From positions 4,142 through 68,141 of the forward strand of contig JAZDKE010000013.1 of NCBI GenBank assembly GCA_043803245.1: DNA of 64,000 nucleotides. The letters run 5' to 3'. Positions 12,735-64,000 of the stretch are shown one piece after another; position 1 is the stretch's first letter, and each line of letters starts with the position of its first letter. Below the pieces are notes generated by a model. That model searched no databases. It was not told the origin of the DNA and saw only the letters and a program-made list of their open reading frames with translations. The DNA is from Chloroflexota bacterium (GTDB lineage: Bacteria; Chloroflexota; Dehalococcoidia; Dehalococcoidales; SURF-40). Both the position numbers and the translations under genes were made by a program.

Positions 12735-12755
12735 CCGGTCTATTTACGTTTTGCT

Positions 12756-16156: not shown

Positions 16157-16185
16157 TTTATAACAATTACCGCTCGCTGTGTCAA
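16157..16185 (-). promoter_or_regulatory. Sigma70-like promoter for the IPT/TIG gene
   Basis: On the minus strand: TTGACA (16180-16185), a 17-nt spacer, then TATAAA (16157-16162). Confidence 0.5.
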
Positions 16186-16228
16186 CCTTGCCGCCGCACG
16201 CCGTCGCTGGAAGTGTGACAAAAAGGCA

Positions 16229-16258
16229 TTGACATCAATAGAACACTTGTACTATATT
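16229..16258 (+). promoter_or_regulatory. Sigma70-like promoter for the HTH/portal operon
   Basis: TTGACA (16229-16234), an 18-nt spacer, then TATATT (16253-16258). Confidence 0.55.
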
Positions 16259-16290
16259 AGCACCGACACAGGCTTTGCGAGGGTAGGACA

Positions 16291-16614: not shown

Positions 16615-17989
16615 AAACTTCATCGCCGAGCTAAACCGCCGGGACACCGAACGAATCAAATCCTACCAGACCCTGCTCAATTTCTACCAGGGGCAGCACT
16701 GGCCGGACCGCCCCCGTTGGGGAGAAAAACGCCTCACCTTCAACTATGCCCGGCTGTTCGTGGACAAGATAACCTCCTACTTAATGTCGGGCGTGAGCTT
16801 CGCCATTGATGCCGCCCAGGACAGCGACCAGGCCAGGCAACAGGCACAGCGGGCCGAAGCCGCCCTGCTCGAGGTCTACCAGCAGAACAGTCTGGAACAG
16901 CTTGACCTCGAAACGGAGACCGACTGCGCCGTGATGGGCGACGCCGCCTACAAGGTAATCTGGGACAGCGCCGCAAAAACGGTGCGGGTGACCGCCCCCG
17001 ATATCCAGGGCATCTACGCCTGGTGGCCGGGCGACGACGCCGCCCAGGTCTGGCGGGTAGCCTCCAAATACCGCCTCTCCCCGGAGGAAAGCGAGCGGCT
17101 CTACCAGCGCAAACCGCGGGGCGAGACCGCAACCGTCATCGAGGTCTGGACAGATGCTAGTTTCGAGCTTTACCTGGATGGCGAGCTGCTCGAAAGCCGG
17201 CCCAACCCCTACCGATGCATACCTTTCGTTATCTACCCTAACATGCGCGAGCCCAAGAAATTATGGGGGGTCTCCGACCTTGTCCCGATTATGGAAGGCC
17301 AGCAGGAACTCAACCGCGCCCTGAGCCAGCTATCGAGAATCCTGGAGCTGTCCGGCAACCCCATCGCGGTGCTGGAGAACGTGGAGGGGTCACAGGACAT
17401 CGCGGTGAGACCCGGCGCCGTCTGGAACCTGCCGGAAGACTCCCGCGCCTATCTGCTCGACCTCCTGCAGGGCGGGGGCCTGAACCTCCACATTGATTAC
17501 ATCAACCTGCTCTACCGGAGCCTGCACGACTTAGCGGAGTCGCCCCGGGCGGCCTTCGGCGGCACGGAACGCGACCTCTCCGGCGTCGCCCTGGAAATTG
17601 AGCTCCAGCCGCTGCTGCAAAAGGTCAGCCGCAAACGCATCATCCGCAGTGCGACTTACAACCGCCGCAACCGCCTCATCCTGGACCTGCTGGAAAAGTA
17701 CCGGGGTGAGGACTTCGGCCCCCTGCGCCTGCGCACCGTCTGGTGCCCGGTAATGCCCCGCGACACCGCACGTCTGGTCTCAAGCGAACAGACGCTCATC
17801 CAGAGCGGCATCCATTCCCGTCGCCGGGCGATGGACGAGCTGGGAGTGGCCGACCCGGAGTTGGAGTTCCGGCGGTGGCTCGAAGAAAGAGCGCAAATCC
17901 TGAAAATGAACCAGGAATTTAATGCCCGAGGCCCCAAGACCTCAAGGGAGAGAGGCACCGAAGGCCGGGCTGACGGCAGCGAAGAATAA
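16607..17989 (+). CDS. Phage portal protein
   Basis: 460-aa ORF between terL and the scaffold/capsid genes. Its size and the N-terminal YQTLLNFYQGQHW pattern are typical of SPP1-gp6-type portals. Confidence 0.7.
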   Translation: MTENFIAELNRRDTERIKSYQTLLNFYQGQHWPDRPRWGEKRLTFNYARLFVDKITSYLMSGVSFAIDAAQDSDQARQQAQRAEAALLEVYQQNSLEQLDLETETDCAVMGDAAYKVIWDSAAKTVRVTAPDIQGIYAWWPGDDAAQVWRVASKYRLSPEESERLYQRKPRGETATVIEVWTDASFELYLDGELLESRPNPYRCIPFVIYPNMREPKKLWGVSDLVPIMEGQQELNRALSQLSRILELSGNPIAVLENVEGSQDIAVRPGAVWNLPEDSRAYLLDLLQGGGLNLHIDYINLLYRSLHDLAESPRAAFGGTERDLSGVALEIELQPLLQKVSRKRIIRSATYNRRNRLILDLLEKYRGEDFGPLRLRTVWCPVMPRDTARLVSSEQTLIQSGIHSRRRAMDELGVADPELEFRRWLEERAQILKMNQEFNARGPKTSRERGTEGRADGSEE

Positions 17990-18010
17990 GCTAAAAAGGA
18001 GGTGAGACTC

Positions 18011-18502
18011 TTGCCCGAGGAAACCGTAATCGTGGAACCAGAGCATAGCCCGGAGCCGGAAGGCAAGCCCCAAGCCAATGCTGAGCGTGAGGAGATGGCC
18101 GGGGCGGCCCAGATTGCCGAGCTCGAAAGCCGGTTAGCCGAAAAAGAAGCGGCTTTATCCGGGGCCAACGAACGCCTGAGCAGGCTGGCGGCGGCCATCG
18201 CCGAGCTGGAGGCCAGACTCGCCCGGGCCGCCGCCAGCTACCGGACGCTCATCATTGCGGCCCATCCCGAAATTCCCGAAGACCTGATAAGCGGCCAGAG
18301 CGTCGAGGAAATCGAGGCCTCCCTGGAGAAAGCCCGCAGCCTGGTGAGCCGGGTGAGACAGGGGCTGGAGATGGCTGCGACCCAGGGCCGGGTGCCCCCC
18401 GGCGCACCCCCGAGGACGGTACCTGACCTGTCGAGCCTGTCCCCGCGCGAAAAAATTCAATACGGCATAGGAGGTAAGAAAAATGGCATTAACTCTTTCT
18501 GA
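18011..18502 (+). CDS. Scaffold-like coiled-coil protein
   Basis: Ala/Glu/Leu-rich ORF in the canonical position between portal and capsid genes. AAGGAGG lies 8 nt upstream of TTG 18011; the track ORF starts at 18002. Confidence 0.5.
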   Translation: MPEETVIVEPEHSPEPEGKPQANAEREEMAGAAQIAELESRLAEKEAALSGANERLSRLAAAIAELEARLARAAASYRTLIIAAHPEIPEDLISGQSVEEIEASLEKARSLVSRVRQGLEMAATQGRVPPGAPPRTVPDLSSLSPREKIQYGIGGKKNGINSF

Positions 18503-19403
18503 AGCGAGCAAGCTCGCTAACGACGTCCTGCTTCAGGGTGTGGTCGAGACCATCGTCAAGGAGTCCCCGGTGCTCCAGCGGCTGCCCTTCATCGAAATCG
18601 CCGGCAACGGTCTCACCTACAACCAGGAGAAGACCCTGCCCGGCATCGACTTCTACGATGTCGGCGATACCTGGGTGGAATCCACTCCGACCTTCGAGCA
18701 GAAAACCGCCCATCTCAAGATTATGGGTGGCGACGCCGACGTGGACAACTTCCTGAAGTCCACCCGGAACAATATCCAGGATTTGGAGACGGCGGTGGTC
18801 GAACTCAAGGCCAAGGCCCTCAAGGACAAGTTCGAGGAGTCTTTCATCTACGGTAACGCCACCGCCAATCCCAAGCAGTTCGACGGCCTGAGACTGCTCA
18901 TCGGCACCACCAGCTCAGGCGGCCAGGTAGTTGCCGCCGGCGCCACTGGCGCCACCCTGACCCTTTCCATGCTCGACCAGCTCATTGACACCGTAAAAGG
19001 CGGCAAGCCCGACATGCTGCTCATGAGCCGGCGCTCGCGAAGGAAAATCAACGCCCTGGTGCGCGCTTCCGGCAGTATGCTGGACACCGACCGCGACCGC
19101 TGGGGCAACTTCGTCCAGTACTGGGACGGCATCCCCATCGGGGTTAACGACTGGATACTGGACACCCACAACGTCGCCGGCAGCGTGGAAACGGCCACCA
19201 CCGGCGGTGACAGCTCCACCATCTACGCTGTCCAGCTAGGAGAAGGTGCCCTTGCGGGACTGACCAGCCCGGGACACATGGTCGCCGAGCACATCGGCAA
19301 CCTTGAGTCCAAAGACGCCAGCCGCACCCGGGTCAAGTGGTACGTCTCGCTGGCGCTCTTCAGCACGGTCAAGGCCGCCGCATTAATCGGCGTGCAGGAC
19401 TAA
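18483..19403 (+). CDS. Phage major capsid protein (HK97-fold type)
   Basis: 306-aa ORF preceded by a GGAGG RBS. Its position and sequence pattern (..FIYGNATANPKQFDGL..) are typical of major capsid proteins. Confidence 0.75.
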   Translation: MALTLSEASKLANDVLLQGVVETIVKESPVLQRLPFIEIAGNGLTYNQEKTLPGIDFYDVGDTWVESTPTFEQKTAHLKIMGGDADVDNFLKSTRNNIQDLETAVVELKAKALKDKFEESFIYGNATANPKQFDGLRLLIGTTSSGGQVVAAGATGATLTLSMLDQLIDTVKGGKPDMLLMSRRSRRKINALVRASGSMLDTDRDRWGNFVQYWDGIPIGVNDWILDTHNVAGSVETATTGGDSSTIYAVQLGEGALAGLTSPGHMVAEHIGNLESKDASRTRVKWYVSLALFSTVKAAALIGVQD

Positions 19404-19465
19404 AGGAAATGCCTTTCAGGAGGACTTAAAATAGCCCCCGTTCTACGCCTGAAAATAAAACCTGA

Positions 19466-19489
19466 GGGGGGAGGCAGCTGCCTCCCCCC
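19466..19489. terminator. Perfect 24-nt GC-rich palindrome after the capsid gene
   Basis: GGGGGGAGGCAG/CTGCCTCCCCCC. An A-tract lies upstream on the + strand, which equals a T-tract downstream on the - strand. Confidence 0.4.
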
Positions 19490-19507
19490 CCGATGAGGAG
19501 GATTAAT

Positions 19508-19972
19508 ATGGCACTGAGCGTAATCGAACACACCGAGCATCCCTTCGCCAGGGGGAGCCTGACCGCCGACGGCATCCAGTGGTCGGCGGAGAAGACCACC
19601 AGCACCGATGACTACGAGACCGTCGAGCAAGCTACGGTGAAGCCGCCGGCCCTGGGCACCATCCTGGAGTTCGAGTTCGGGCTTACCTGCGCCATAAAGT
19701 CAAGCGGAGCCACCGAAGCTGCCAAGTTCAAATGGCAGGCGTGCAACAAAGGCGGCACCTGGGTTGACCTCCACGACGAGGTGACCTACGCCGCCGATGC
19801 CTCAAGCTACCGCGGATATACCTACAGCGGTCGCCGCGGCACAGCGGCCAACTTCAACACCGTGCCTTTCGAAGTCCGGCTGGTAATCAAGTCCGGCGGG
19901 GCCGGAGGTGAGAATGCCACTAGCAAGACCAAAAACTCAAGCTACGTCAAGGTAATCTACGCTGCTGCGTGA
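19508..19972 (+). CDS. Hypothetical structural protein
   Basis: A GAGGAGG RBS precedes ATG 19508. The 154-aa product is beta-rich and sits downstream of the capsid gene. Confidence 0.5.
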   Translation: MALSVIEHTEHPFARGSLTADGIQWSAEKTTSTDDYETVEQATVKPPALGTILEFEFGLTCAIKSSGATEAAKFKWQACNKGGTWVDLHDEVTYAADASSYRGYTYSGRRGTAANFNTVPFEVRLVIKSGGAGGENATSKTKNSSYVKVIYAAA

Positions 19973-19980
19973 GGTGCGCT

Positions 19981-20619
19981 ATGGACTTTATCCGCGATAC
20001 CAACCTCATCCTCTACCTGCCGCTCTATGAACTCGATGGCGCTTCCATCCAGGACAGGTCGGCCTATGGCCACCTATCTGTGGTCACCGGTGCTTTGTGG
20101 ACTCCGCAGGGCAGGAGTTTTGACGGGGTAGATGACCAGATAGCCATCGCCACCAGTACAGTCTTTGATATACCTGATACCATCACGCTTGAAGGTTGGA
20201 TAAACATAGCAAGTGTTGTCAGTATGGCGGGCTTTATCGCTCGGTCTACTGGATGGGAACTCCGGCAAAGTGCCAGTGGCCAAATAATATTCCTGCCTTT
20301 TATTGATGCTGCTTGGCGAGACGGTGGGGCAAGTAGTGTTTTATCTGCGAGCCAGTGGTTTCATATTGCGTTCACATATTCTAGCGCTACCAGACAGGCA
20401 CTAACGTACCGCGATGCAGTTTTGGAGAGTTCCGTTATATTTTCGGGACTTGCTAGTTACACATTGGGAACTGGCGCAGCTTCAGTACTATTAGGTTACG
20501 ATGTTCTGAACGGCGTGGTTTTCAATGGCAAACTAGGCGAAATCCGCATCTACAATCGTGTTCTATCTGCGGTAGAGATACAGAATAACTACCTCGCTAC
20601 GAAGTGGAGGTATCAATGA
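19981..20619 (+). CDS. LamG/concanavalin-A-like lectin domain protein
   Basis: Laminin_G_3-type pattern: D.S..G......GA.W...G..FDG.DD.I; W.HIAFTY; F.G.LGEIRIYNRVLSAVEI. The DNA is visibly more AT-rich than its neighbours. Confidence 0.7.
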   Translation: MDFIRDTNLILYLPLYELDGASIQDRSAYGHLSVVTGALWTPQGRSFDGVDDQIAIATSTVFDIPDTITLEGWINIASVVSMAGFIARSTGWELRQSASGQIIFLPFIDAAWRDGGASSVLSASQWFHIAFTYSSATRQALTYRDAVLESSVIFSGLASYTLGTGAASVLLGYDVLNGVVFNGKLGEIRIYNRVLSAVEIQNNYLATKWRYQ

Positions 20620-20834
20620 AGTATCGAGTAAAACTGGACTTGTTATTTGACAATGAGGCTCTAGCCCGCAACCTGATGAGCTATGCCAAGTCCCTTACGG
20701 GCAAGGCGACGAGCCTTAACGAAGGCAACGCCAGCGAGGAGATAAGCTTCGCCGATATCCACCTCTGCGGGCACGACGAGTCCCCACCCAAGCCTTGCCA
20801 GCCCATGGAACGGGTCGAGGTGAGAAAGGCGTAA
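20616..20834 (+). CDS. Hypothetical small protein
   Basis: A GGAGG RBS precedes ATG 20616. The product is 72 aa. Confidence 0.45.
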   Translation: MKYRVKLDLLFDNEALARNLMSYAKSLTGKATSLNEGNASEEISFADIHLCGHDESPPKPCQPMERVEVRKA

Positions 20835-20844
20835 GGAGAACGAG

Positions 20845-21477
20845 ATGAACTTGAGCGATATGAGGACCACCGTCCGGCGCGAGCTCCACGATGAGGACTC
20901 TGGCAACTACCGCTGGAGCAACGACGAGCTCGACCGGCACATCGCCCGGGCAGTGGGAGAACTCTCCGAGCACCTTCCCAGCGAGCAGAAAGCGACCAAA
21001 GCCACTACTTCCGGCTCGCGAGAACTGGACATCACCAGCCTCGCCGACCGGGTAATGGTCGAAGCCGTGGAGTACCCGGTGGGCCAGTTTCCCCCCAGAT
21101 ACCAGCGCTTCGCGCTCTGGGGGGAAACCCTGACCCTGCTCGGCGATGAGGTCCCCGGCGGGGGCAACGCCTACGTCTACTACGGCAAACGGCACACTCT
21201 TGACGCCCAGGGCACCACCATCCCCAGCCGCTACCAGGACCTGGTAGCCGGCGGCGCCGCCGGCTACGCCGCCGTCGAATGGGCCGCCTACGCCATCAAC
21301 CGGGTGAACGTTGGCGGCCACCTGACACCCCGCGAATTCCTCGACTGGGGGAAGGAAAAACTGGCTTTCTTCCAGAGCGAGCTCAGGCGGCTGGGGCGGC
21401 GGAACCGGACCAGAGTGAGCACCCTCTACCGTCCCTATTACCCGCCGGTGTCCCAGATCACCGACTACGGGCCATAA
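20845..21477 (+). CDS. Head-tail adaptor-like protein
   Basis: 210-aa ORF with an AAGGAG RBS. The N-terminus (LSDMRTTVRRELHDED..YRWSNDELDRHIARA) resembles phage connector/adaptor proteins. Confidence 0.45.
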   Translation: MNLSDMRTTVRRELHDEDSGNYRWSNDELDRHIARAVGELSEHLPSEQKATKATTSGSRELDITSLADRVMVEAVEYPVGQFPPRYQRFALWGETLTLLGDEVPGGGNAYVYYGKRHTLDAQGTTIPSRYQDLVAGGAAGYAAVEWAAYAINRVNVGGHLTPREFLDWGKEKLAFFQSELRRLGRRNRTRVSTLYRPYYPPVSQITDYGP

Positions 21478-21504
21478 GCAAGTCTGACCAGGGTGAGATG
21501 AAGA

Positions 21505-23508
21505 ATGAGAAGCCTTACACAAACACTAACCAGCGCTCAAAAGGCACCGGCTAAAATACCTTATGTCAAACTGAAAGCCCGGAACACCACCGGCGGCCTG
21601 GTACGTCTCGACTGGAGCCGGCTCTACAGCGGCAGCGAGGACGACTATCTCCACGCCGCGACTATGCCCGCCGACGGCTCACTGATACGGGCCAGGGTCA
21701 CCCCGCTTAGCGACAACCTGAAACTCTACCGCCAGCGGGTAGCCAGCCCCGGCCCGGGTTCCGACTTTAGCCAGTGGAGCTACACCAACCAGTACGGCGT
21801 GCTGGCAGTGGCCGGCGCTTCCCGGGACGCCGAAGCGTCCATTTTCTGGATAAAGAACAACCGTGAAATCCGTCAGATGAAGAGCACCGACTACGGCGCC
21901 AGCTGGGGCAGCCCCACCCTGCTGGACTACTCGCCCACCACCGGGGTGGGCGGCCTGGCAGCCGCCTACAAAAGTAACGGCGACATCGCCCTGTTCTATG
22001 CCGAGCAGGCCACCCTTTACGTAATCAAACGCACCGGCGGTAGCTGGGGCAGCCGCGTTGCCTGGGACAAGTCCACCGGCAACCTGTCGGGCGTGGCTAC
22101 CGCCTATGACGGGGACTGGCACCTGCTGGTGACGGGCCAGGACTCAAGCGGCAACTACCGGCTCTGGTCGCTGGTCTACGGCGACGGCGGTGAGCTGGCA
22201 GCCGGCACCTGGTCAGACCTCAAAACGGTCGCCCAGGCACCCTCGGACGGCGACTATGAATACCACGGCGTCTTCATCGACCTGCCCGACGTCCACCGTA
22301 CCTTCTTCACCGAAAAATATAGCGGCACCGAAGCCTACCAGCGCCCTTTCTGGAGCCACACCATCGCCCAGACCAGCTTCCTGGATAACCTCTGGCGCGA
22401 GCCGGTGCCCTTTAACCTCTCGGCCAGCTACGGTCTGGCCATCACCCATCACGGCGACTGGGCCTGGCTAACCGCCCCCTTTGGCGTCTGGCGAGCCAAG
22501 CTCACCCAGGAGAGCCTTGACCTGGCGGAAGATGTGCTTTCCATCAGGGAGGAACTGGCCACCACCGGCGGCGAGCTTGAGATTGAGTTAAGGAACGATG
22601 ACGGCCGCTACGCCTCGCCGGGGACGGGGGCCATCTCTTTGCTGAACATCGGCGGCGAGCTGGAGTTCAGTCCCGGCTACCGGACGACCGAAGGCAACGA
22701 GGTCAGTGACGGCCAGTTCTTCAGCCTTGAAGCCTGGGAGCACACCAGTTCTCCGGGCAGGGCCACGCTGGTGCTCCATGCCCGCGACGCCTGGCACTGG
22801 CTTGGCAACTTCCGCGCCGGTCACCAGTTCCGCTGGAACAAAGCCAGTGAAGAGCTGAACGTCAAGGGGATGCTCGCCTTCGTGCTGTCCCGGGTGGGGC
22901 TGAGGCTCGAAGTGATATCTCAGTCCAGCACCGCCACCGGGTTCTACCCGGACTTCACCATCAGACCGGGCGACCAGGGCGACGTTATCATAAGCCGGCT
23001 GCTCAGTTTCATACCCGACGTTATCCGGCTGGAAGGCGCTACCGCCTACCTTATTAACCCCCAGACTACCGACAGCGCCGACTACGGCTACGGCGCCGGC
23101 CACGCCATTTTCGAGGGGAGCTACCTCAAAGGCGCCCTCAAGCAAAACCTGGTTGAAGTCGAAGGCTACGACCCGCCAGGCGGCACGCCGATTATCGCCA
23201 GCGTTTTCGACTGGGACGAGATAGGCCGGCTCTACCACCGGCGCCGGCGCATTGAGGACCGCAACCTGAAATCCACCACCCAGGCCCAGGGTCGTGGCGA
23301 GAGCTACCTGAGAGAGGCCGCGATAACGGCCGGGGGCGGCACGCTCCGGGTGCCGGTTAATGCCGGTCAGCAGCTATACGATGTTATCGAAATTACTGAC
23401 CGCCTCGCCGGGCTCGACGCTGAGAAAAAGAGGGTCTTAAAAATCGGCCTGGCCTATCATCCCGCCCGCGCCCGGTACGAGATGAGGCTCGGCCTGGGCA
23501 ATGTCTAA
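21505..23508 (+). CDS. BNR/Asp-box beta-propeller fused to a phage tail/baseplate-hub-like C-terminal half
   Basis: 667-aa ORF with the Asp-box STDYGASW plus related repeats in the N-half. The C-half pattern (ELEIELRNDDGRY..IGGELEFSPGYRT..) is typical of tail hub/late-control-D-like proteins. Confidence 0.5.
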   Translation: MRSLTQTLTSAQKAPAKIPYVKLKARNTTGGLVRLDWSRLYSGSEDDYLHAATMPADGSLIRARVTPLSDNLKLYRQRVASPGPGSDFSQWSYTNQYGVLAVAGASRDAEASIFWIKNNREIRQMKSTDYGASWGSPTLLDYSPTTGVGGLAAAYKSNGDIALFYAEQATLYVIKRTGGSWGSRVAWDKSTGNLSGVATAYDGDWHLLVTGQDSSGNYRLWSLVYGDGGELAAGTWSDLKTVAQAPSDGDYEYHGVFIDLPDVHRTFFTEKYSGTEAYQRPFWSHTIAQTSFLDNLWREPVPFNLSASYGLAITHHGDWAWLTAPFGVWRAKLTQESLDLAEDVLSIREELATTGGELEIELRNDDGRYASPGTGAISLLNIGGELEFSPGYRTTEGNEVSDGQFFSLEAWEHTSSPGRATLVLHARDAWHWLGNFRAGHQFRWNKASEELNVKGMLAFVLSRVGLRLEVISQSSTATGFYPDFTIRPGDQGDVIISRLLSFIPDVIRLEGATAYLINPQTTDSADYGYGAGHAIFEGSYLKGALKQNLVEVEGYDPPGGTPIIASVFDWDEIGRLYHRRRRIEDRNLKSTTQAQGRGESYLREAAITAGGGTLRVPVNAGQQLYDVIEITDRLAGLDAEKKRVLKIGLAYHPARARYEMRLGLGNV

Positions 23509-23777: not shown

Positions 23778-24878
23778 CTAGCCGGGAGGCCGCTGGTTCC
23801 GCCAGTGCCCGGGGATGGCCAGCTCTTTTTTAACCGTTCGGTCGGGCGTCTTATCCGGCTCAGGCGAAATCCGCGGCTCTACCGGGGGATTTTCCGCCTT
23901 TGTCTTATGGGCGAAATGCATCGGGCTGGTATGGGCGATAACCTCCGGGGAATGGGCGGCGACCCGGGGCCGTCCCGGCGAGACAACCGGCACCGGGGTG
24001 AACCTCATCCGGCCGGGAACCTGGGTGGTCTGGGGCGAGCGATATGAAACCATGGGGGCGCTGGGCGCCACCTTCTCGGCGGGCGGCGTCGGCGGTTTTT
24101 CTTCCATTGATTTATAGAAACGGCCCAGCATCTTCTCCTGCTCGGCGGTGGTTCTGGCCAGGTCCTGAGAAGCGGCGCTAAGACCCTGTATTGCCGAAGT
24201 GTGGCTTTTTAAATGCTCGGCATAAAGCTCGATTGCGGAGCCGAACTTGGCCAGGGTCCGCTCCAGGCCGTCCATCTTTTTCTCGGTGTTGACTACCTTC
24301 TCCGCTACCAGCTCGCTACCATGCTGGCTCTCTTCAATGATGCGCCGGTTAGCCTCAATGACCGGGGCGAAAATGCCCTGCTGCAGCCGCATCCGGCCCC
24401 GGTTAATCTCATCGACGTAGAGGAAAAGACCCATCAGGACCACCGAGATAATCAGGAACATCAATCCCTGGTCGCTCTGGAAGAAGAGCAGGATAAAGCC
24501 TGCGTAAGGGATGCGGCTCGAAGCGACACCCAGTATGTCGTTGGAGCGCACCGTGAACGGGTCGCCGCCGGTGTTGTCGCCCTTGGTGCGGAACCCCTTG
24601 CCCGCCGGCCCCATGTCGCGGACTTCGGTCACACGGTGGGCCACTACCGGCGGGTAGTTGTAAAAATCGCGGACGGCTGAGGGCACGCTGAAAACGATAA
24701 CGTCGCCGGCTTTGACGTCATTAGGATTAATCTCACTAATCATAATCAGGTCGCCGGCCCTGAGTTCCGGCTCCATGCTGACGCCGAAGACGGGCATAAA
24801 GGGCATCGCGCCCCGGATGGATAAGAAGCCCGCGACGCAGACCGCGATTACGATTATCAGCAGGAGTAACCTTTTCAT
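23778..24878 (-). CDS. SipW-like (S26B, ER/archaeal-type) signal peptidase I with a long C-terminal extension
   Basis: 366-aa ORF with an N-terminal TM, Ser box GVSMEP, His box AHRV and a KGDN box. A second TM is followed by ~200 aa of helical then Pro-rich sequence. Confidence 0.78.
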   Translation of the reverse strand: MKRLLLLIIVIAVCVAGFLSIRGAMPFMPVFGVSMEPELRAGDLIMISEINPNDVKAGDVIVFSVPSAVRDFYNYPPVVAHRVTEVRDMGPAGKGFRTKGDNTGGDPFTVRSNDILGVASSRIPYAGFILLFFQSDQGLMFLIISVVLMGLFLYVDEINRGRMRLQQGIFAPVIEANRRIIEESQHGSELVAEKVVNTEKKMDGLERTLAKFGSAIELYAEHLKSHTSAIQGLSAASQDLARTTAEQEKMLGRFYKSMEEKPPTPPAEKVAPSAPMVSYRSPQTTQVPGRMRFTPVPVVSPGRPRVAAHSPEVIAHTSPMHFAHKTKAENPPVEPRISPEPDKTPDRTVKKELAIPGHWRNQRPPG

Positions 24879-24933: not shown

Positions 24934-25008
24934 AAGATAACACCCCATCATAAAAGCGGCCATAAAGATTATAAAGATTCCATTAAGTTTTTATTAAAGT
25001 TTCGTAAA
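24934..25008 (-). promoter_or_regulatory. Phased six-repeat array plus -10 element upstream of the signal peptidase gene
   Basis: Minus-strand repeats start at 25008, 24997, 24986, 24975, 24966 and 24954 (spacing 11-11-11-9-12). TATCTT lies at 24934-24939. The first repeat is 130 nt from the start codon. Confidence 0.65.
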
Positions 25009-25027: not shown

Positions 25028-26062
25028 CTACCGCTGGCTAACCTCCGGATAAAGCTCAGGTGTCACCGTCCAGCCCGCCTCCCAGCTGGTAGTATTGGCC
25101 GAAACCAGCCGGTAGCTGCCTCCCACCACCCTGAGTGCCTGGCTGCCGGGGAGACCACCCGGCAGGTTGAAGACGGCCCCGCCGTTCTCCAGGCTGAGAA
25201 TCTCATAACCGGGTGACCCGGAGGCCTCCACCGAGTCCTGGAGATAGAGATTAAGTCTCAACTCCCGATAAGCCTTGAGCAGGTCGCCGGTATTCATGAG
25301 GTAGACCCGGACCTGCAGGTATTCACTCAGTCCCGGGGCCGGGGTGACGGCAAAGAGGTCACCGGTGGGAGCGCTGCCCGAGATGAGCGTCTGGCGGTAG
25401 CTTGCCGCTACCGTAACCTGGGTCAGGCGTACCGTAGCCTTATTATCATCGGTCTTAATCCTGGCACCAGCCTGCAGGTCATTAAGCTCTGGCACCGTCC
25501 AGGCGGCCCCGGTACGGGGGTTGGTCGGCCAGTGGTATGACCGGGTGACGAAGGCCGGTCCGAGCTGGCTCTCCTCAGCCCCACTATAAACGCTGCCTCC
25601 GGTCTTGATGACCGCGCTGGCGTAGCCGATTATATCCTGGTTACCGCCGGAGAAGCGGAAGCTCACGGTCAAATCGGTTATCGCAACATCAGCTATGTCC
25701 GGGTCACTTAAGTTATAGAGGTCGGTCTGGTAATTCTTGCTATCGGTATAGACGAAGGTCGCAGCATCGTCCGGCGTACTTTCGGCCACCTTGTCAAAGT
25801 GCTCTCCCGACTCCGGCCACTGGTCGGATATCCTGGCCTGGTCGCCGCGGCCAATTACCCAGAGCATCTCCCCGCCCTCAACGGTATAGGGCATCACCTG
25901 TTCCCAGTCGGGCTGGCTTGCGGCCACGGCAATGGTGGCGATATCACCGGTCGGCTCCAGGGTGTTCACCACACTGGAAGATACGCGGTAGGCATAAGCC
26001 GAAGCCCCTCCCACCAGCACCAGGAAGGCCAGAACCTGAAAAATGACCAGACCCTTTCTCAT
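25028..26062 (-). CDS. Secreted fibre-subunit paralog with inserted domain (P4)
   Basis: 344-aa ORF with signal peptide ..LVGGASAYAYR. It shares the blocks GDIATI, TGDLFAVTP..LQVRVYLMNTGDLLKAY, LSLENGGAVF, VVGGSYR and C-terminal PELYPEVSQR with P1-P3. Confidence 0.65.
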   Translation of the reverse strand: MRKGLVIFQVLAFLVLVGGASAYAYRVSSSVVNTLEPTGDIATIAVAASQPDWEQVMPYTVEGGEMLWVIGRGDQARISDQWPESGEHFDKVAESTPDDAATFVYTDSKNYQTDLYNLSDPDIADVAITDLTVSFRFSGGNQDIIGYASAVIKTGGSVYSGAEESQLGPAFVTRSYHWPTNPRTGAAWTVPELNDLQAGARIKTDDNKATVRLTQVTVAASYRQTLISGSAPTGDLFAVTPAPGLSEYLQVRVYLMNTGDLLKAYRELRLNLYLQDSVEASGSPGYEILSLENGGAVFNLPGGLPGSQALRVVGGSYRLVSANTTSWEAGWTVTPELYPEVSQR

Positions 26063-26064: not shown

Positions 26065-27516
26065 CTAGCGCTGCACCACTTCGCCGTAAATTTCGGGTAT
26101 GATGCTCCAGCCGCTAGCCCAGTCCTCAGAGTCCCCTGAGACCTTGTGGTAGCTGCCGCCGACCACCGAGAGCCTGGAGTCAGACAGGCCGCCGCCGCCG
26201 CCGATGGTGTAGGTGATGGTAACATCGCTCAGGGTTGGGGTGCGGCTGCCATTACCGGAGAAGACCGCCCGGAACTGAAACCAGCGGTCGCCATCGTGGA
26301 CAGGGTTAATGGCAGTGTTACTTGCGGTGTAGTAGTCACCGGTGCCGGTAGGCCCGTACCAGACCGCGCTGGCAAGCCCACCGGAAGTCGCCGCCGACCT
26401 GAGCTGGAACTTGATATCGGTGCCCGACGGCTCGGTAATGGTGAAACCGATGGTGCCGAAATCGGCGTTGCTACCGCCGTCACGGGCCTGGGAGATAAGG
26501 CTGCCGGATAGTTGGTACTGAGTCCCCCATACCAGCCTGACATTATCCACGTAAAGAAAATCGTTACCCCCCGACATTCCGATGCCATTGAAAGCAATCC
26601 GGAACTCGCCGGACATGGGGAAAGCGGAGAGGTCGATGTCGTAGAAGCGATAGGTGTCATCATCATCACCGTCAGTCCAGCTCCGCACCGTGGTCCAGTT
26701 GGTATCATCAGGGCTGACCCGGGCACTGGCTACGTCTCCAGACTCCAGGGAATCAGCCTTTGCCCAGAACTGGAGACGGACGTTGGTCTTTCCCACGAGG
26801 TTCAGCGCCCGTTCGGCGTAGCCATTCGTCCCCCGGACAAGCAGGTGGTAGCTACCCTGGTAAGGGCCGTCGTCGTCGGTAACATCAGCCAGGCCGGCGT
26901 GGCGCCACCAGGGGTAGAGCCAGCCACTGCCGCCGGACCAGCCGCCGCTTTCGAAGTCATCCGAAGCGATGATACTCGTCGCCGACGCAAGTTTAACGTC
27001 ACCGGGGCTGCTGGTGGTATCCAGGTTCGTAAGTGTGCCCGCCTCAAAATCAGCCTGGGTCGTCTGCGTCCAGCTCACCGGGGAGGGCACGCTGCCGTTC
27101 CCGGTCAGGCTGAAAGTGGCCACGCCGTTATCCAGCGTCAGGACTCGGTAGTCAGGTGTGCTCCCCGCCTCCTCAGAGTTCTCCAGGTACAGCTTGATAT
27201 TGAGGTAGCGGTAGGCTTTGATGAGCGCATTGGTGTTGGTAAGAGAGGCCTTGACCACCAGGTCGCCACTGTAGCCCGGCTGAGGACTGATGTTGTACAG
27301 GTCGCCGGTGGGCACGTCGCCGCTTAAAGTGGCGGTTTGCGAAATGAGCGAGCCCCAGTCCGGCTGGCTAACCGCCTTGCTAACGGTGGCAATATCGCCG
27401 CTGGGTTCCGACACCCCCAGGGTTAAAGCACGGTTGTTATAGGTGTAGGCGAAGCCGCCGCCGCTGACCAGCAGGACAAGCAGTAACACCCCCGCAAACC
27501 ACAACTTCTTCGGCAT
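26065..27516 (-). CDS. Secreted fibre-subunit paralog with large inserted domains (P3)
   Basis: 483-aa ORF with signal peptide ..LVSGGGFAYTY and the same core blocks as P1, P2 and P4. About 300 aa are inserted before the last core strands, and the C-terminus is PEIYGEVVQR. Confidence 0.65.
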   Translation of the reverse strand: MPKKLWFAGVLLLVLLVSGGGFAYTYNNRALTLGVSEPSGDIATVSKAVSQPDWGSLISQTATLSGDVPTGDLYNISPQPGYSGDLVVKASLTNTNALIKAYRYLNIKLYLENSEEAGSTPDYRVLTLDNGVATFSLTGNGSVPSPVSWTQTTQADFEAGTLTNLDTTSSPGDVKLASATSIIASDDFESGGWSGGSGWLYPWWRHAGLADVTDDDGPYQGSYHLLVRGTNGYAERALNLVGKTNVRLQFWAKADSLESGDVASARVSPDDTNWTTVRSWTDGDDDDTYRFYDIDLSAFPMSGEFRIAFNGIGMSGGNDFLYVDNVRLVWGTQYQLSGSLISQARDGGSNADFGTIGFTITEPSGTDIKFQLRSAATSGGLASAVWYGPTGTGDYYTASNTAINPVHDGDRWFQFRAVFSGNGSRTPTLSDVTITYTIGGGGGLSDSRLSVVGGSYHKVSGDSEDWASGWSIIPEIYGEVVQR

Positions 27517-27543: not shown

Positions 27544-28068
27544 CTATCGCTGGGTAACTTCGAGAAAGAGCTGCGGCTGGACGCTGCCACCGGTGAGCGA
27601 TTTCCAGGGATGAAGTTTGTAGCCGCCGCCCGATAGCTTAACCTTGTAAGGCCCCGTACCGGTGCCGTTGGCCCAGGTGAACAGGACGCTGCCATTCTGG
27701 AGGTTGAGCACCTGAATCTGCCCCTGTTCGTCAACGATGTTGCCGCCGTTATCAACCAGCGTAAGCGACATATTCAGGTGATTATACTGGCGGATGAGCT
27801 GGCCGGCGTTCACCAGGTCAACCCTGACGGCCAGGTCCCCGGTGTAGCTGCCGTTCGGTGTGATGTTGAAAAGCGTGCCCGTTGGCCAGGTGCCGGTGAA
27901 ATTGCCGAAGACGGTGGGCGCGGTGATGTTGCCCGATGTCACCGTGGCGAAGTCCGATTCCGCGGCGTTAACCCCGATGGTCGTGGTCGCCGTGGTGAAA
28001 GTAAAGGCATACATACCCAGGCTACCCACCAGCACCACCGCAAAAATTATGATGATGAGTCTCTTCAT
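27544..28068 (-). CDS. Small secreted fibre-subunit paralog (P2)
   Basis: GGAGG lies 8 nt upstream of ATG 28068. The 174-aa product has signal peptide ..LVGSLGMYAFTF and blocks SDFATV, TGTLFNITP..GDLAVRVDLVN, LNLQNGSVLF, GGGYK and PQLFLEVTQR. Confidence 0.7.
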   Translation of the reverse strand: MKRLIIIIFAVVLVGSLGMYAFTFTTATTTIGVNAAESDFATVTSGNITAPTVFGNFTGTWPTGTLFNITPNGSYTGDLAVRVDLVNAGQLIRQYNHLNMSLTLVDNGGNIVDEQGQIQVLNLQNGSVLFTWANGTGTGPYKVKLSGGGYKLHPWKSLTGGSVQPQLFLEVTQR

Positions 28069-28129
28069 CTTACTGCCCTCCAAGAATATTCCTGTCCCAT
28101 ATCCTACTCTCTTCCCAGCTTTTACTCAA

Positions 28130-28185: not shown

Positions 28186-28773
28186 TTAGCCGGCCTGAAC
28201 CACATCCGCGTAAAGCGTCGGACCATAGATGCTGCCGGAGATGAATGCCCAGGGGAAAGCGCGGTAGATGCCGCCGGTGGTCCTGATGTAGTAGGTCGTG
28301 CCGCCGGTCAGGCTGTCGGCGAGGAAGGTAACGACGCCGTTGTTCAGGGTGAGCGGCTTCGTTATCCCCTCGCTGTCAACCGGAGTGCCGTTGAAAGCGG
28401 TCAGTTGGAGCTTCATCAGGAACATGCCGTAGGTCTTGGAAAGCTGGTCAAGGTTGGTGAGATAGACGCTCACCTCAAGGTCTCCGGGGTAACCAGTTGC
28501 CGGGGTGAGGTTAAACAGGTTGCCCGAGCCGATGGCGCCGCGGTAGCTGCCGAACACGCTGTAGCTGGCCACGGTGTTGTTGGCGGCTACACTGGCGAAA
28601 TCATTGCCACCGGAGGTGGCGGTAATGTCCGTGGACGCCGAGGTGTAGGTGAAGGCGAACATGGTAGCGCTGGCCACAAAAGCCAGTGCCAGGGCACCCA
28701 CCAGCACCTGCCGGAACGCGCCCATCTTGGTAAAACTCTGTGCTATTTTCTTTTTTTGCTCCTTGCTAAACAA
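28186..28773 (-). CDS. Small secreted fibre-subunit paralog (P1)
   Basis: 195-aa ORF with a basic n-region, signal peptide ..FVASATMFAFTY and blocks NDFASV, GNLFNLTP..GDLEVSVYLTN, LTLNNGVVTF and TGGIYR. The start is uncertain (TTG 28773 or Met17). Confidence 0.7.
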   Translation of the reverse strand: MFSKEQKKKIAQSFTKMGAFRQVLVGALALAFVASATMFAFTYTSASTDITATSGGNDFASVAANNTVASYSVFGSYRGAIGSGNLFNLTPATGYPGDLEVSVYLTNLDQLSKTYGMFLMKLQLTAFNGTPVDSEGITKPLTLNNGVVTFLADSLTGGTTYYIRTTGGIYRAFPWAFISGSIYGPTLYADVVQAG

Positions 28774-28863
28774 ATTCTTCGGTATAGCTAGTATCTTATG
28801 ATTAAATCAATTGCCCTTTTTCGGGCGCATGACACATTATTCTCCATCACATACTCTCACCTC

Positions 28864-29643
28864 CTATTTCAGCTCGGACATGAACGAGAGGAACCGTTCC
28901 CTGAGGCCGCTCTTAAAGGTATCAAAGTCGCTTTTGGTGATATAGTCACCCTTCGGCCCGCCATCTGAACTCTGAGGCAGGGCGGGGCTGTTCTGTCCCA
29001 CGATTATCAGCCGGCGGTGCCGCTCGTTAGTCACCAGCTTGTAGAGGATAATCTCAAGCTCGTGGCTTATGACATCCTCGGCCAGGGAAAGGGCTTTCGC
29101 CGCCTGTTCCAGGGTACTGCCGCCGGCCAGGTGCCGCATTATCTCCGCCTCGCGGGGCGTGAGACGGGCCATCATATCAGCCAGGCTGCCGCCAATCGAA
29201 CCGAACCGCTCGAACTCGTCGAGCGCCCGCCTGGCGATTTGGGGTTTAAGCAGCGCCCGGCTGATGGGATTAGCGCCCTGGACAACCTCGTTGATGATGT
29301 CAATCAGGTCGCCGGGGTCAATGTCTTTGGTAACACAGGCGCTGGCCCCGCTTTTCAAGGCGAAGTAGAATTTCTCTTCGTTTTCGCTTTCCATCACTAA
29401 AATCACCGAGACCTCGGGCAGGGTCTGCTTGATGCGGCCGGTGGCTTCGCTGCCCGTTAACCGCCCATGTTCGGCGTTCAAAATTGCGATGCGGGGCGGC
29501 TTCTGCTCGATGAAGGCCAGGGCTTCTTCGCTTGAGGTTGTCTCGCCGATAACCTCGATATCCTCTTCTCCGGACAGGGTAAAGTGGATACCTTCCCGGA
29601 AGAGTACCTGCCAATCTGATAAAAATACGGTGACTTTTTCCAT
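28864..29643 (-). CDS. LuxR/NarL-type response-regulator-like protein with a degenerate receiver
   Basis: 259-aa ORF with a C-terminal LuxR HTH (TPREAEIMRHLAGGSTLEQAAKALSLAEDVISHEL). The receiver-like N-half has SD in place of the acidic DD pair and N in place of the phospho-acceptor Asp (..IAILNAE..). Confidence 0.7.
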   Translation of the reverse strand: MEKVTVFLSDWQVLFREGIHFTLSGEEDIEVIGETTSSEEALAFIEQKPPRIAILNAEHGRLTGSEATGRIKQTLPEVSVILVMESENEEKFYFALKSGASACVTKDIDPGDLIDIINEVVQGANPISRALLKPQIARRALDEFERFGSIGGSLADMMARLTPREAEIMRHLAGGSTLEQAAKALSLAEDVISHELEIILYKLVTNERHRRLIIVGQNSPALPQSSDGGPKGDYITKSDFDTFKSGLRERFLSFMSELK

Positions 29644-29698: not shown

Positions 29699-29773
29699 AA
29701 ACTAACACACAATCGTAAAGATGCCCATAAAAATCATAAATATTTCATAAAGGTTTCGTTAAGGTTTCGTAAA
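29699..29773 (-). promoter_or_regulatory. Phased six-repeat array plus -10 element upstream of the LuxR-type gene / subunit operon
   Basis: Minus-strand sequence: TTTACGAAACC TTAACGAAACC TTTATGAAATA TTTATGATT TTTATGGGCATC TTTACGATTGT. Repeats start at 29773, 29762, 29751, 29740, 29731 and 29719. TAGTTT lies at 29699-29704. The first repeat is 130 nt from the start codon. Confidence 0.7.
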
Positions 29774-29835
29774 TAATAAAGAGGCGTTCCACCCCACTCG
29801 CCGCCACCCCATCGGGGTCATCCTGGACTACGTAA

Positions 29836-30528
29836 CTATGGACGGATAAACTTGTAGCCCATACCGTGCTCGGTGGTGATGATGGCCGGGACTTCGACGT
29901 TGTCGCCCAGCTTCTGCCGGAGGTGCTGGATATGCACCCGGAGCAGGTCGCGGGAGTCGCCGTAGTCATCCCCCCAGATCCTGGTTAGCAGGGTCTCGTG
30001 GGAGAGCAGGCGACCCTCGTTTTTAATCAATTGATAAAGCAGCTTATACTCGGTGGCGGTGAGTTTGACCGGCTTATCGTGCACCTTTACCTCACCGCTG
30101 GCAAAATCCACCCACAGTTTGCCGCTGGCAAACGGCTCCTGCTCGCTACCGGCCACCACCCGGCCCTGGACGCGGCGCAGGACCGCCTGTACCCGGGCCA
30201 TTAGCTCAACGTGGCTGAACGGCTTGGTGATATAGTCGTCGGCCCCCAGCTCAAGACCGCGGGCGACATCGACATCTTCGCCGCGCACGGTAAGCATGAT
30301 GACCGGCACCTGAGAAAACCGCCTTATCTCGCGCAGCGTCTCGAAACCGTCCATGTCCGGCAGGCCCACGTCAAGAATGACCAGGTCGGGGGTCTCGGCC
30401 TCGACCATTTCCAGTCCGCTCTTGCCCGAACCGGCGGAGACTACCTGGGTGCCACTCCAGCGCATCTTGAAGCACAGCGAGACCACTTCAACGATTTCAC
30501 TCGAGTCGTCAACTACCAGCACCTTCAC
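29836..30528 (-). CDS. OmpR/PhoB-family response regulator
   Basis: 230-aa ORF with a canonical receiver (VVDDS, LVILDVGLPD, KPF) and a winged-helix C-terminus. Confidence 0.88.
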   Translation of the reverse strand: MKVLVVDDSSEIVEVVSLCFKMRWSGTQVVSAGSGKSGLEMVEAETPDLVILDVGLPDMDGFETLREIRRFSQVPVIMLTVRGEDVDVARGLELGADDYITKPFSHVELMARVQAVLRRVQGRVVAGSEQEPFASGKLWVDFASGEVKVHDKPVKLTATEYKLLYQLIKNEGRLLSHETLLTRIWGDDYGDSRDLLRVHIQHLRQKLGDNVEVPAIITTEHGMGYKFIRP

Positions 30529-31271
30529 TTGCTACCAACCTCCGGCGAAGGGTTTTTATCCAGGGGCAAAGAGAAGAAAAAGCTGGAACCTTTGGCCTCC
30601 TCGCTCTCCAGCCACACTTTGCCACCGTGTTTTTCCACCAGCGACCGGGTGATGGTCAGGCCGAGACCACTGCCGACCAGCTTGCCGCTGCCCCGTCCCA
30701 TCTGATAGTAAGGCTTGAAGATGTTCTCCCACTCCCGGCGCGGAATACCGACTCCGGTATCGCTCACCCGGGTAACGAGCGTGTTACCATCCTGCCAGAC
30801 CGAAAGCGCGATACGACCGCCATCCGGGGTGAAATTGCCGGCATTAGACAGCAAATTCTCCAGGATTTGCTCAAGACACCGCCGGTCAGCCCTGACCCTG
30901 GGCAGCGAGTTGGGAATGTCCAGAATTAGCTGCTGACCCCGGCCCTGAAAGATGGCGTAAATTTGAGTGGTGACACTCGAAATCAAGTGCCCCAGGTCAA
31001 GCGTCTCGGGGGACAGATGTACATCCGCCACCAGCCACTGCGTCACTTTAGAAAGGTCGGAAAGTCTCTCTTTGAGACGGTGGGCGTTACGGATGATGCT
31101 GCAAATAAGCCGACCAGTGTTACTTTGCTCATTCTGGTTGAGTTCTTCGCCCAGAAGCTCCGCGGACACGATAATGGCACTGAGCGGGGTCTTGAGCTCG
31201 TGCATGATGGTGGCGGTGTAGTCTACTCCCCGACGGTTAGCAGCCGTGGCGGCTTCTATCGGTTTACCCAT
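30525..31271 (-). CDS. Histidine kinase core without a recognisable sensor or TM domain
   Basis: 248-aa ORF with the H-box IMHELKTPLSAI starting about residue 23, plus N, G1 (DTGVGI) and G2 (GSGLGL) boxes. Its stop overlaps the regulator start (4 nt). Confidence 0.85.
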   Translation of the reverse strand: MGKPIEAATAANRRGVDYTATIMHELKTPLSAIIVSAELLGEELNQNEQSNTGRLICSIIRNAHRLKERLSDLSKVTQWLVADVHLSPETLDLGHLISSVTTQIYAIFQGRGQQLILDIPNSLPRVRADRRCLEQILENLLSNAGNFTPDGGRIALSVWQDGNTLVTRVSDTGVGIPRREWENIFKPYYQMGRGSGKLVGSGLGLTITRSLVEKHGGKVWLESEEAKGSSFFFSLPLDKNPSPEVGSK

Positions 31272-31356: not shown

Positions 31357-31737
31357 TTAATCACGCAGGCTACGCGCGATATTTTTCAGCATGGTGAGGA
31401 CGCTGACCACCGCCCGCTGCACTTCCGGCGGTTCCTGCCCGAGAACACTGGCCACATAAGGGTCAAGGCGGCCGCCGGTGTAATTATTACCTCTCTCGGC
31501 CACGCCGGCGCTGTGCCGCGAGAGATAGCCGGCCAGGTAAAAAAGCTCGTCTTCATCAAAACCCAGCGGCCCGGCGATACGGTGCAGGATGTGGGCCGAG
31601 GGGAAGCGCTGGCCTCTCTCCACCCGGCCCAGGTGCGAGGGAGAGACCCCGGACTTCGCCGAAAGCTGCTGCAATGTCATATCCCCCGCAACCCGCTGCT
31701 GCTTGATGATTTTGCCCAGTTCCTTTCCTTCCGTCAT
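31357..31737 (-). CDS. XRE-family HTH transcriptional regulator
   Basis: HTH MTLQQLSAKSGVSPSHLGRVERGQR. The start is placed at the Met of MTEGKELGK (31737) because the promoter at 31762-31791 lies inside the longer track ORF. Confidence 0.75.
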   Translation of the reverse strand: MTEGKELGKIIKQQRVAGDMTLQQLSAKSGVSPSHLGRVERGQRFPSAHILHRIAGPLGFDEDELFYLAGYLSRHSAGVAERGNNYTGGRLDPYVASVLGQEPPEVQRAVVSVLTMLKNIARSLRD

Positions 31738-31761: not shown

Positions 31762-31791
31762 ATTATAGATTTGCCAAATGGCAAATGTCAA
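31762..31791 (-). promoter_or_regulatory. Consensus promoter with an 18-nt palindromic operator in its spacer
   Basis: On the minus strand: TTGACA (31786-31791), an 18-nt spacer, then TATAAT (31762-31767). The spacer is the near-perfect palindrome ATTTGCCA-AA-TGGCAAAT (31769-31786). Confidence 0.6.
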
Positions 31792-31987
31792 CATAGCCGG
31801 TGATTTTTGCCAGTAAAACCAATATATCGTGCCGGCATGAATTATCCATAAAAAATCCATAAAATAAGTGTATATTTTTAACCGAAGTATGAACCGGCAC
31901 CGACCGAGAGCCTCCCTTTCACCTAATTTATACTTCGGTCAATGTTCCCCCTTCCTTGACGGCCAAACCCGGCGCGGCTAGAATAGC

Positions 31988-63691: not shown

Positions 63692-63766
63692 TTTATGAAA
63701 TCTTAACGAAACCTTTATGCCATGTTTATTTTCTTTATCCGGGTCTTTATGACGGCGGAGTAGACT
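63692..63766 (+). promoter_or_regulatory. Phased six-repeat array plus -10 element upstream of the right-edge gene
   Basis: TTTATGAAATC TTAACGAAACC TTTATGCCATG TTTATTTTC TTTATCCGGGTC TTTATGACGGC. Repeats start at 63692, 63703, 63714, 63725, 63734 and 63746 (spacing 11-11-11-9-12). TAGACT lies at 63761-63766. The first repeat is 127 nt from GTG 63819. Confidence 0.7.
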
Positions 63767-63818: not shown

Positions 63819-64000
63819 GTGAAGGTGGTTTTCGGGTTCCTGGGGGGCATCTTTTTCGGCGGGGTACTGATGGTCATGTTATCCTTCGGGCTGCCGGCGC
63901 TCGCCCAGTCCGATAATACCACCAGCGACAACTTTAGCTTGAGCGACCTCTTACCCGATATCGAGAAAATCTACCGCGATGCCCTGCTGACCCCTTTCCT
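63819..64000 (+). CDS. 5' end of a secreted/membrane protein gene running off the right edge
   Basis: GTG 63819 opens a frame that stays open to the window end. The translation VKVVFGFLGGIFFGGVLMVMLSFGLPALAQSDNTT.. looks like a signal peptide with an ALA-Q cleavage-like site. Confidence 0.5.
   Translation, partial: MKVVFGFLGGIFFGGVLMVMLSFGLPALAQSDNTTSDNFSLSDLLPDIEKIYRDALLTPF

Follow-up and report, generated by a model that had tools for sequence, protein, structure and literature searches.

The window analysed here, a stretch of 64,000 nucleotides from a Chloroflexota bacterium of the Dehalococcoidales, carries on its reverse strand a three-gene regulatory operon encoding an XRE-type protein, a histidine kinase and an OmpR/PhoB-type response regulator (hereafter the HTH-HK-RR operon), followed by the gene for an atypical NarL/LuxR-type response regulator (RR*), four genes for secreted subunits and a gene for a SipW-like signal peptidase. 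Three arrays of phased direct repeats, designated A, B and C, precede RR*, a small secreted-protein gene at the right-hand edge of the window and the sipW-like gene, respectively, while a shorter site, designated D, lies upstream of the HTH-HK-RR operon. The features are as follows.

23778..24878, reverse strand: SipW-like (archaeal-type S26) signal peptidase I of 366 aa, Peptidase_S26, predicted to be driven from array C
24934..24942, reverse strand: extended -10 of promoter C, TGT TATCTT
24944..25008, reverse strand: array C, six units spaced 11-11-11-9-12, preceding the sipW-like gene
25028-26062, 26065-27516, 27544-28083 and 28186-28773, reverse strand: four secreted subunit genes, 3' of RR*
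28864..29643, reverse strand: RR*, atypical NarL/LuxR-type response regulator of 259 aa, predicted to be the first gene driven by array A
29699..29707, reverse strand: extended -10 of promoter A, TGT TAGTTT, 8 bp past the unit-6 heptamer
29709..29773, reverse strand: array A, six direct TTTAYR units with hexamers starting at 29773, 29762, 29751, 29740, 29731 and 29719, preceding RR*
29781..29795, reverse strand: weak hairpin resembling a terminator, with a T run, separating the OmpR-type gene from array A
29836..30528, reverse strand: OmpR/PhoB-type response regulator, canonical receiver and KdpE-like DNA-binding domain
30525..31271, reverse strand: soluble histidine kinase of 248 aa, HisKA and HATPase_c, partner of the OmpR-type regulator
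31357..31737, reverse strand: XRE-type HTH_3 protein, first gene of the HTH-HK-RR operon
31762..31791, reverse strand: sigma-70-type consensus promoter of the HTH-HK-RR operon, TTGACA, 18 nt, TATAAT
31836..31863, reverse strand: site D, TTTATG-N5-TTTATG-N5-TTCATG, approximately 45 nt ahead of the operon promoter's -35
63692-63756, forward strand: array B, six units spaced 11-11-11-9-12, preceding the small secreted-protein gene
63761..63766, forward strand: -10 hexamer of promoter B, TAGACT, with GAG in place of TGn
63819..64000, forward strand, cut by the end of the window: small secreted protein with a signal peptide and an LLPDIExIYxxAL motif

Six-unit arrays and the promoter element behind them

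Reading and alignment of the sequences confirmed, to the base, the three arrays described in the first-pass annotation, together with their coordinates, their strands and the spacing of 11-11-11-9-12 nt (mean 10.8) between unit starts. The accompanying measurements were reproduced as well: arrays A and B differ at 2 positions within their first 27 nt; TAGTTT, TAGACT and TATCTT each lie 9 nt past the sixth hexamer of A, B and C, respectively; unit 1 is separated from the downstream start codon by 130, 127 and 130 nt in the same order; and the OmpR-type gene ends (stop codon at 29836) some 62-63 nt from array A. Within array A, units 1-3 are well-conserved 11-mers of the TTTACGAAACC type and units 4-6 are looser, while array C begins 20 nt past the stop codon of the last subunit gene.

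Dinucleotide shuffling of the window (59% G+C) gave an expectation of 0.00 for a relaxed pattern of three consecutive TTWAYR-N5 units, with one mismatch allowed, and the only matches to this pattern in the window itself are arrays A, B and C and the short site at 31836-31874 (site D). Similarly, phased TTWAYG pairs, for which 0.11 (11 nt apart) and 0.06 (22 nt apart) occurrences were expected, were observed only at A, B, C and D. Inside arrays A, B and C, inverted-repeat pairs numbered zero, and direct families at 11-nt spacing were found instead. The reading of the arrays as a structured RNA or riboswitch was rejected, there being no match to any Rfam family anywhere in the 64-kb window. The three arrays are genuine features well outside chance expectation, and are conserved copies of one promoter module.

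The promoter element itself emerges from an alignment of 73 unique arrays, in which the sequence TGnTAnAtT, located behind the arrays and outside the pattern used to search for them, is nevertheless conserved. Specifically, TG (positions 67-68) is present in 64-70 of the 73 arrays, the second and last positions of the -10 (A71 and T75) are each present in 73/73, and T70 and A73 are also conserved, such that the earlier suggestion of TAnnnT as a promoter box is borne out in the form of a conserved extended -10. No -35 hexamer is conserved among the 73 arrays and none is present in promoter A; units 5 and 6 cover the -35 and spacer region, and unit 6, taken as a heptamer, leaves 8 bp between its end and the conserved -10. 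The earlier description had the repeats extending to the -35 position; they do not stop there and run on to about -22, 8-9 bp from the -10. Matches to TATAAT in the window amount to three of six positions for TAGTTT and four of six for both TAGACT and TATCTT. As judged from conservation, the array and TGnTAnAtT form a predicted promoter with an extended -10, in which the repeats would span about -81 to -22 relative to the predicted start.

Distribution of the module and the genes around it

When 185,579 genomes, one per species, were scanned with an exact 59-nt IUPAC pattern describing the six units, 64 stretches were recovered, 62 of which fall within Dehalococcoidia/Chloroflexota MAGs and yield 65 arrays in 44 assemblies, at 1-3 arrays per genome. 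By this exact-pattern count, the module ranges over at least 44 uncultured Dehalococcoidia species, and conservation of the six-unit architecture in related genomes, which the first-pass annotation had named as a check, is found in 44 other Dehalococcoidia/Chloroflexota assemblies. The 11-11-11-9-12 spacing is invariant in the 73 aligned arrays, and positions left free by the pattern are also conserved, including AAA after units 1-3 and the CC closing unit 2. All scanned arrays face a gene start, 82-222 nt away, and on contigs with RR* homologues of 57-88% identity, one array stands in front of RR* and a second before the SipW-like gene. The arrays are not a scattered generic repeat, as copies in the 44 other genomes occur only before genes and in the gene's orientation, and the end of a mobile element was rejected along with a generic repeat in view of copies lying only 5' of genes at a fixed distance to the -10. 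A literature search returned nothing on this array module and no paper combining 'Dehalococcoidia' and 'SipW', and look-ups of two window proteins by exact sequence gave no recorded match.

Matches in Vulcanimicrobiota (L010) and Synergistia (L069) were rejected as low-complexity TTTAT arrays without TGnTAnnnT. These arrays are AT-rich, near-identical in two unrelated MAGs, composed of TTTAT units 9-12 nt apart and followed by genes that differ from those behind the Dehalococcoidia arrays; the shared array may represent a mobile element or a binning artefact.

The genes found behind the arrays fall into recurrent classes comprising RR* (approximately 40 arrays), the SipW-like peptidase (approximately 17), the small secreted protein (4) and a 37-aa peptide (4), while a subunit gene, a NarL-type regulator (L013) and a HisKA_3/GAF kinase (L037) were each encountered once. 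The candidate regulon originally drawn from the window, namely the LuxR-like gene, the SipW-like peptidase and the secreted protein, accordingly recurs downstream of arrays in the other genomes. The small secreted protein, for which no Pfam family match was obtained, has homologues of 88-108 aa that also lie behind arrays in L016, L027 and L030. Peptides of approximately 37 aa (MENFVLAGKAKTVFKLIEL..., with a lysine-rich tail) are encoded directly behind arrays in L017, L039, L042 and L060; this array-driven family has no copy in the window.

The four subunits share N-terminal (FAYTY...SGD) and C-terminal (GGxY...EVxQR) motifs and match no Pfam or NCBIfam model for TasA, the 174-aa subunit having no family match. 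Fold prediction covers this one subunit of 174 aa, for which an AlphaFold2 model built on 46 homologues (pLDDT 77.5) gave as top Foldseek matches the CanA cannula subunits of Pyrodictium, the Hyper2 tube and the AbpA bundling pilus (E 4e-5 to 3e-3; TM-score 0.45-0.6 with CanA). These proteins form donor-strand jelly-roll fibres of the TasA superfamily (PMC9245690). A CanA (cannula)/TasA-type fold is predicted for the fibre subunits, the resemblance of the window subunits to CanA being one of predicted fold alone. The peptidase matches TIGR02228 (2.9e-24) and the SipW model (1.1e-14) and bears a long C-terminal extension. In pairing a predicted jelly-roll subunit with a SipW-type peptidase, the locus has the components of a CanA/TasA fibre locus and is comparable to tapA-sipW-tasA of Bacillus subtilis and to CanA cannulae and AbpA pili; it has the appearance of a bacterial system for CanA/TasA-like fibres or tubes, served by a SipW-type peptidase dedicated to it. 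Regulation of the Bacillus tapA-sipW-tasA operon proceeds through SinR and related regulators and, unlike that proposed for the window locus, involves no repeat array.

Several further elements were observed between RR* and the subunit genes. A Shine-Dalgarno sequence with an ATG-TGA start-stop mini-ORF (gaggtgagagtATGTGA; 28847-28863, reverse strand) lies right after the RR* stop codon in the window, in L003 and approximately 23 other loci, and in nearly all related loci, and may serve as a translational coupling or regulatory device before the subunit genes. Two elements that do not occur in the window are an inverted repeat, GGTGGYAGG...(45-60 nt)...CCTRCCACC, between RR* and the first subunit gene, and a palindrome, TTGACAAnnAATTGTCAA, approximately 25 nt 5' of the subunit ribosome-binding site; both are present in L005, L008, L009, L024, L049, L068, L070 and others. 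The inverted repeat was rejected as an RNA hairpin, since covariation was no better than in shuffles and RNAalifold returned no prediction despite 84% pairing, while the palindrome could be an RR* operator or a second promoter.

Upstream of the HTH-HK-RR operon, sets of two or three TTWAYG units at intervals of 11 or 22 nt occupy the site-D position in 12 of the 15 other distinct HTH-upstream regions, a count made over regions with an adjacent fibre module; TTWAYG units are absent from this site where the fibre module is non-adjacent. The presence of phased units upstream of the operon promoter suggests feedback on the HTH-HK-RR operon. A palindrome of a different kind, TTTGCCATTTGGCAAA (31770-31785, reverse strand), lies inside the spacer of the operon promoter, is conserved in all related loci, and is probably an XRE operator through which the XRE-type first gene is autorepressed; a related motif, ATGGACAAATGGC, is found approximately 30 nt upstream of it in many loci.

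A phage-like head/packaging block occupies 12372-23508 (forward strand) of the window and is seen also in L006, L009, L022, L053, L061, L074-L077 and L079. Its genes encode small and large terminase subunits, a portal, a scaffold, a major head protein, an SU10-type adaptor, a Laminin_G_3 protein and a protein of approximately 665 aa. In 14/14 distinct contigs that reach past the locus, each from a different Dehalococcoidia assembly or metagenome sample, the block is convergent to the fibre locus or directly follows the OmpR-type gene. The HTH-HK-RR operon has constant neighbours, rpsU/yqeY to one side and the convergent block to the other, and in window-type genomes the RR*-fibre-SipW module is positioned between operon and block. 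The major head protein is more conserved than the products of neighbouring genes, being 77-80% identical between genomes whose RR* proteins are only 50-57% identical. No integrase was present among the Pfam matches of called genes beside the block in six related loci, and no arrays were found before the block or near non-adjacent OmpR operons. The block could be a domesticated, GTA-like element.

Candidate readers of the arrays

The first-pass annotation interpreted the arrays as OmpR/PhoB-type sites, and independent, if indirect, support for this reading can be found in the similarity of the window regulator to KdpE, its kept contact residues and the TTTATA/TTTACA half-sites of KdpE. The closest solved homologue of the window OmpR-type regulator is E. 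coli KdpE (4kny, E 3e-40), and residues R193, R200 and T215 of KdpE align to R, R and T in the window protein. In KdpE these three residues are required for DNA binding, R193 being specific to the KdpE group, and the sequence bound is TTTATA-N5-TTTACA, with half-sites 11 bp apart and no effect on binding of T versus C at half-site position 5 (PMC3264566). The array units, too, vary at position 5, their Y. The recognition helix of the window regulator, RDLLRVHIQHLRQKLGD, is essentially invariant in approximately 112 of 120 orthologues listed, whose overall identities range over 71-96%.

The arrays share their architecture with several known operators read by OmpR-type domains. Firstly, OmpR/PhoB operators have head-to-tail half-sites of 6-7 bp that recur every 10-11 bp or a multiple thereof, the promoter-proximal one standing about 8-10 bp from the -10 where the -35 is poor; in the arrays the units likewise run head to tail, with a mean step of 10.8 bp (22 and 11 bp at the operon promoter), and the last lies 8 bp from the predicted -10. 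Secondly, the operator of E. coli kdpFABC has the same TTTA core, 11-bp period and free position 5 (T/C), but consists of one half-site pair upstream of a normal promoter, whereas the arrays consist of six units that run into the spacer and lack a -35. The window system was nonetheless rejected as a KdpE orthologue or KdpDE system: the NCBIfam KdpE model, with a cut-off of 325, scores it at only 159.8, the kinase paired with it is a soluble protein of 248 aa and not KdpD, the targets are fibre genes, and no kdp genes lie near the window locus. Thirdly, Streptomyces PhoP operators are composed of 11-nt direct repeats, up to six per operator, arranged as core and extension units and bound cooperatively (PMC2275107). 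While the arrays resemble these PHO boxes (class III complex) in unit length, number and division into core and extension, they differ in core sequence (TTTAYR versus GTTCAY), in having a fixed unit number and spacing fused to an extended -10, and in serving 1-3 promoters per genome as opposed to a global phosphate regulon. The repeats of Bacillus subtilis PhoP read TT(A/T/C)ACA. Finally, SARP activators, which possess an OmpR-type DNA-binding domain, use repeats 11 or 22 bp apart, the 3' repeat lying over the spacer and a poor -35, at 8 bp from the -10 (PMC10936776). The arrays match SARP promoters, such as the afs box of AfsR, in the spacing and position of the repeats and, as proposed here, in being read by an OmpR-type winged helix, yet SARP sites comprise two or three units and are actinomycete, while the arrays comprise six and are from Chloroflexota; moreover, the window candidate joins its winged helix to a receiver and has no BTA domain.

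The direct 11-bp repeats, the KdpE-like domain, the proximity of the gene and the phased units at its own operon together make the OmpR-type regulator the probable reader of the array, an assignment that we hold with moderate confidence from sequence comparison, and RR* an unlikely one. As regards proximity, the association noted at first pass between the OmpR-type gene and array A extends to approximately 27 loci, in which the stop codon of the gene lies 60-110 nt from the RR* array, but fails in at least 11 loci, in which no OmpR-type gene is present within 3-6 kb upstream of that array. The approximately 27 adjacent loci are not independent, because adjacency may stem from one ancestral arrangement. 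Two genomes with a non-adjacent regulator, CAYVOV01 and CAZBAN01, were checked for co-occurrence, and both carry on another contig an orthologue of 73-74% identity with the same helix. The MAGs are incomplete, so that a gene missing from one need not be missing from the genome.

Several observations count against the OmpR-type regulator. The gene constantly found beside the arrays is RR*, and the HTH-HK-RR operon is linked more tightly to the phage-like block than to the arrays. In addition, CAYXFN01 (L074) has the operon and no array within 10 kb, phased units are absent at the operon promoter in the non-adjacent clade, and KdpE works from about -60, not across the -35 region.

RR* is itself an unusual protein. 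It carries Asn, within an ILNA motif found in at least 90% of 149 sequences, at the position of the NarL acceptor Asp59, and the DD pair of its pseudo-receiver is SD/AD; the LuxR-like protein of the first-pass annotation has no phospho-acceptor Asp. The N-terminal 30 residues (FLADWQVLFREGIHFTLSGEED) are almost invariant in the 149 homologues, a conserved C-terminal extension of approximately 45 aa lies beyond the weak GerE-type HTH, and full-length homologues number in the hundreds, under the names Dehalococcoidales or Chloroflexota. Were RR* to bind the arrays and activate its own promoter, sipW and the secreted-protein gene, array and RR* would constitute a self-contained, positively autoregulated module that could sit beside different appendage gene clusters. 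Consistent with this, RR* is the sole regulator gene beside an array in every clade, and the array-RR* pair is found beside CanA-like fibre genes and, elsewhere, beside a prepilin-peptidase-like gene (the gene after RR* in L012, L020, L044, L051 and L055); in L004, the genes that come after the fibre genes encode a Peptidase_A24 protein, a PilS-like kinase, a NarL-type regulator and pilins. Other array-driven genes include the NarL-type regulator of L013 and the HisKA_3 kinase of L037, the C-terminal extension could mediate oligomerisation, and a protein without the acceptor Asp must depend for its activity on amount. The repeats are, however, direct, with an 11-bp period and no dyad symmetry, and the dyad-symmetric half-sites typical of NarL/LuxR sites are lacking in arrays A-C. 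The solved NarL-, VraR- and DesR-type relatives of RR* act as dimers on inverted repeats. Furthermore, the RR* residues that align with the recognition helix of NarL vary by clade (IRHH, ISHK and, in the window clade, ISHE) while the TTTAYR core stays constant, the GerE match of the window protein falls under the Pfam cut-off, and a pure self-activating loop would be without signal input. On balance, reading of the arrays by RR* appears doubtful.

Rather less probable is that the array serves as a repressor operator, in which a protein, OmpR-type or other, would first occupy units 1-3 and then extend across units 4-6, shutting out RNA polymerase from an extended -10 promoter that fires without an activator. 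Units 5 and 6 do lie over the -35/spacer region, and many orthologous promoters possess a good TGnTAAATT that is perhaps independent of a -35; TG with TAAATT in other genomes may be strong enough without an activator, which would suit repression and speak against an activator. A precedent exists in Streptomyces PhoP, which represses where its repeats overlap core promoter elements (PMC2275107). In the window, however, the -10 hexamers are weak and copy B lacks the TG, the distance of 8 bp from last repeat to -10 is the geometry of SARP activators, and the strongest sites are distal, as they are in activator operators. That no dedicated reader exists, and that the phased T-tracts are intrinsically bent, UP-element-like DNA stimulating a weak promoter, is very improbable: TTT(A) runs do recur every ~10.8 bp and units 4-5 are T-rich at about -48 to -39, but the conservation of non-A/T positions (Y and R of TTTAYR and the CC closing unit 2), the exact 11-11-11-9-12 spacing kept in 44 species and the occurrence of merely 1-3 such promoters per genome amount to a level of sequence specificity indicative of a protein site, not generic curvature.

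A proposed circuit and its meaning

By comparison with the operators discussed above, we infer the reader, its cooperativity, activation over repression, the transcription start and the role of RR* in the following model, in which the OmpR-type regulator is the protein acting at the arrays. The array and TGnTAnnnT would form a single activator-dependent promoter with a weak extended -10, the -35 being replaced by six TTTAYR sites that occupy a single helical face between about -81 and -22. Units 1-3 (11-mers of the form TTTAYGAAAcc) would be the high-affinity core and units 4-6 weaker extension sites. The soluble kinase (30525-31271) would phosphorylate the OmpR-type regulator (29836-30528), which would then bind head to tail as tandem dimers on units 1-2, 3-4 and 5-6, spread cooperatively from the core to the promoter-proximal sites, and recruit or adapt RNA polymerase in lieu of a -35 contact. 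The 248-aa kinase has no sensor or transmembrane domain, and therefore the signal may enter through the XRE-type protein or another partner. We lean, a little beyond even odds, towards the view that the phosphorylated OmpR-type regulator forms oligomers on the array and turns on RR*, sipW and the secreted-protein gene. Activation is favoured over repression because of the weak -10 hexamers of the window and the SARP-like geometry.

Genes switched on in this manner would include RR* with the four fibre subunit genes, the SipW-type peptidase, which would process the fibre subunits, and the small secreted protein. RR* would probably be a second-tier regulator; because it has no acceptor Asp, it should be controllable only by amount, a property that fits a cascade target and a self-activating loop alike. 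As a mechanism, the model extends a known theme, that of tandem OmpR-family sites replacing the -35, and opens no new one. The module is well supported as a new regulon and is most likely a dedicated operator-promoter through which a KdpE-like regulator of the OmpR family would control a small set of fibre genes.

A broader and distinctly speculative proposal, to which we assign little probability, is that the array is the output switch of an XRE/kinase/KdpE-like sensor that ties CanA-type tubes or fibres, via RR*, to the production of GTA-like particles. If true, an uncultured lineage of ecological importance would possess a coupled system by which its cells connect with one another or exchange DNA.

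The Dehalococcoidia are abundant in the subsurface and in marine sediments, and nearly all are uncultured, with little characterised gene regulation. For this group the module offers a testable circuit that joins an operator to a candidate reader, for which KdpE on DNA provides a structural model, and to a small regulon, the last encoding a previously unannotated, predicted extracellular fibre or tube of the CanA/TasA kind together with a signal peptidase of its own. Specific enough to mark the regulon in metagenomes, the 59-nt pattern already flags unannotated members, among them the secreted protein of approximately 90 aa, the 37-aa peptide, and additional kinases and regulators.
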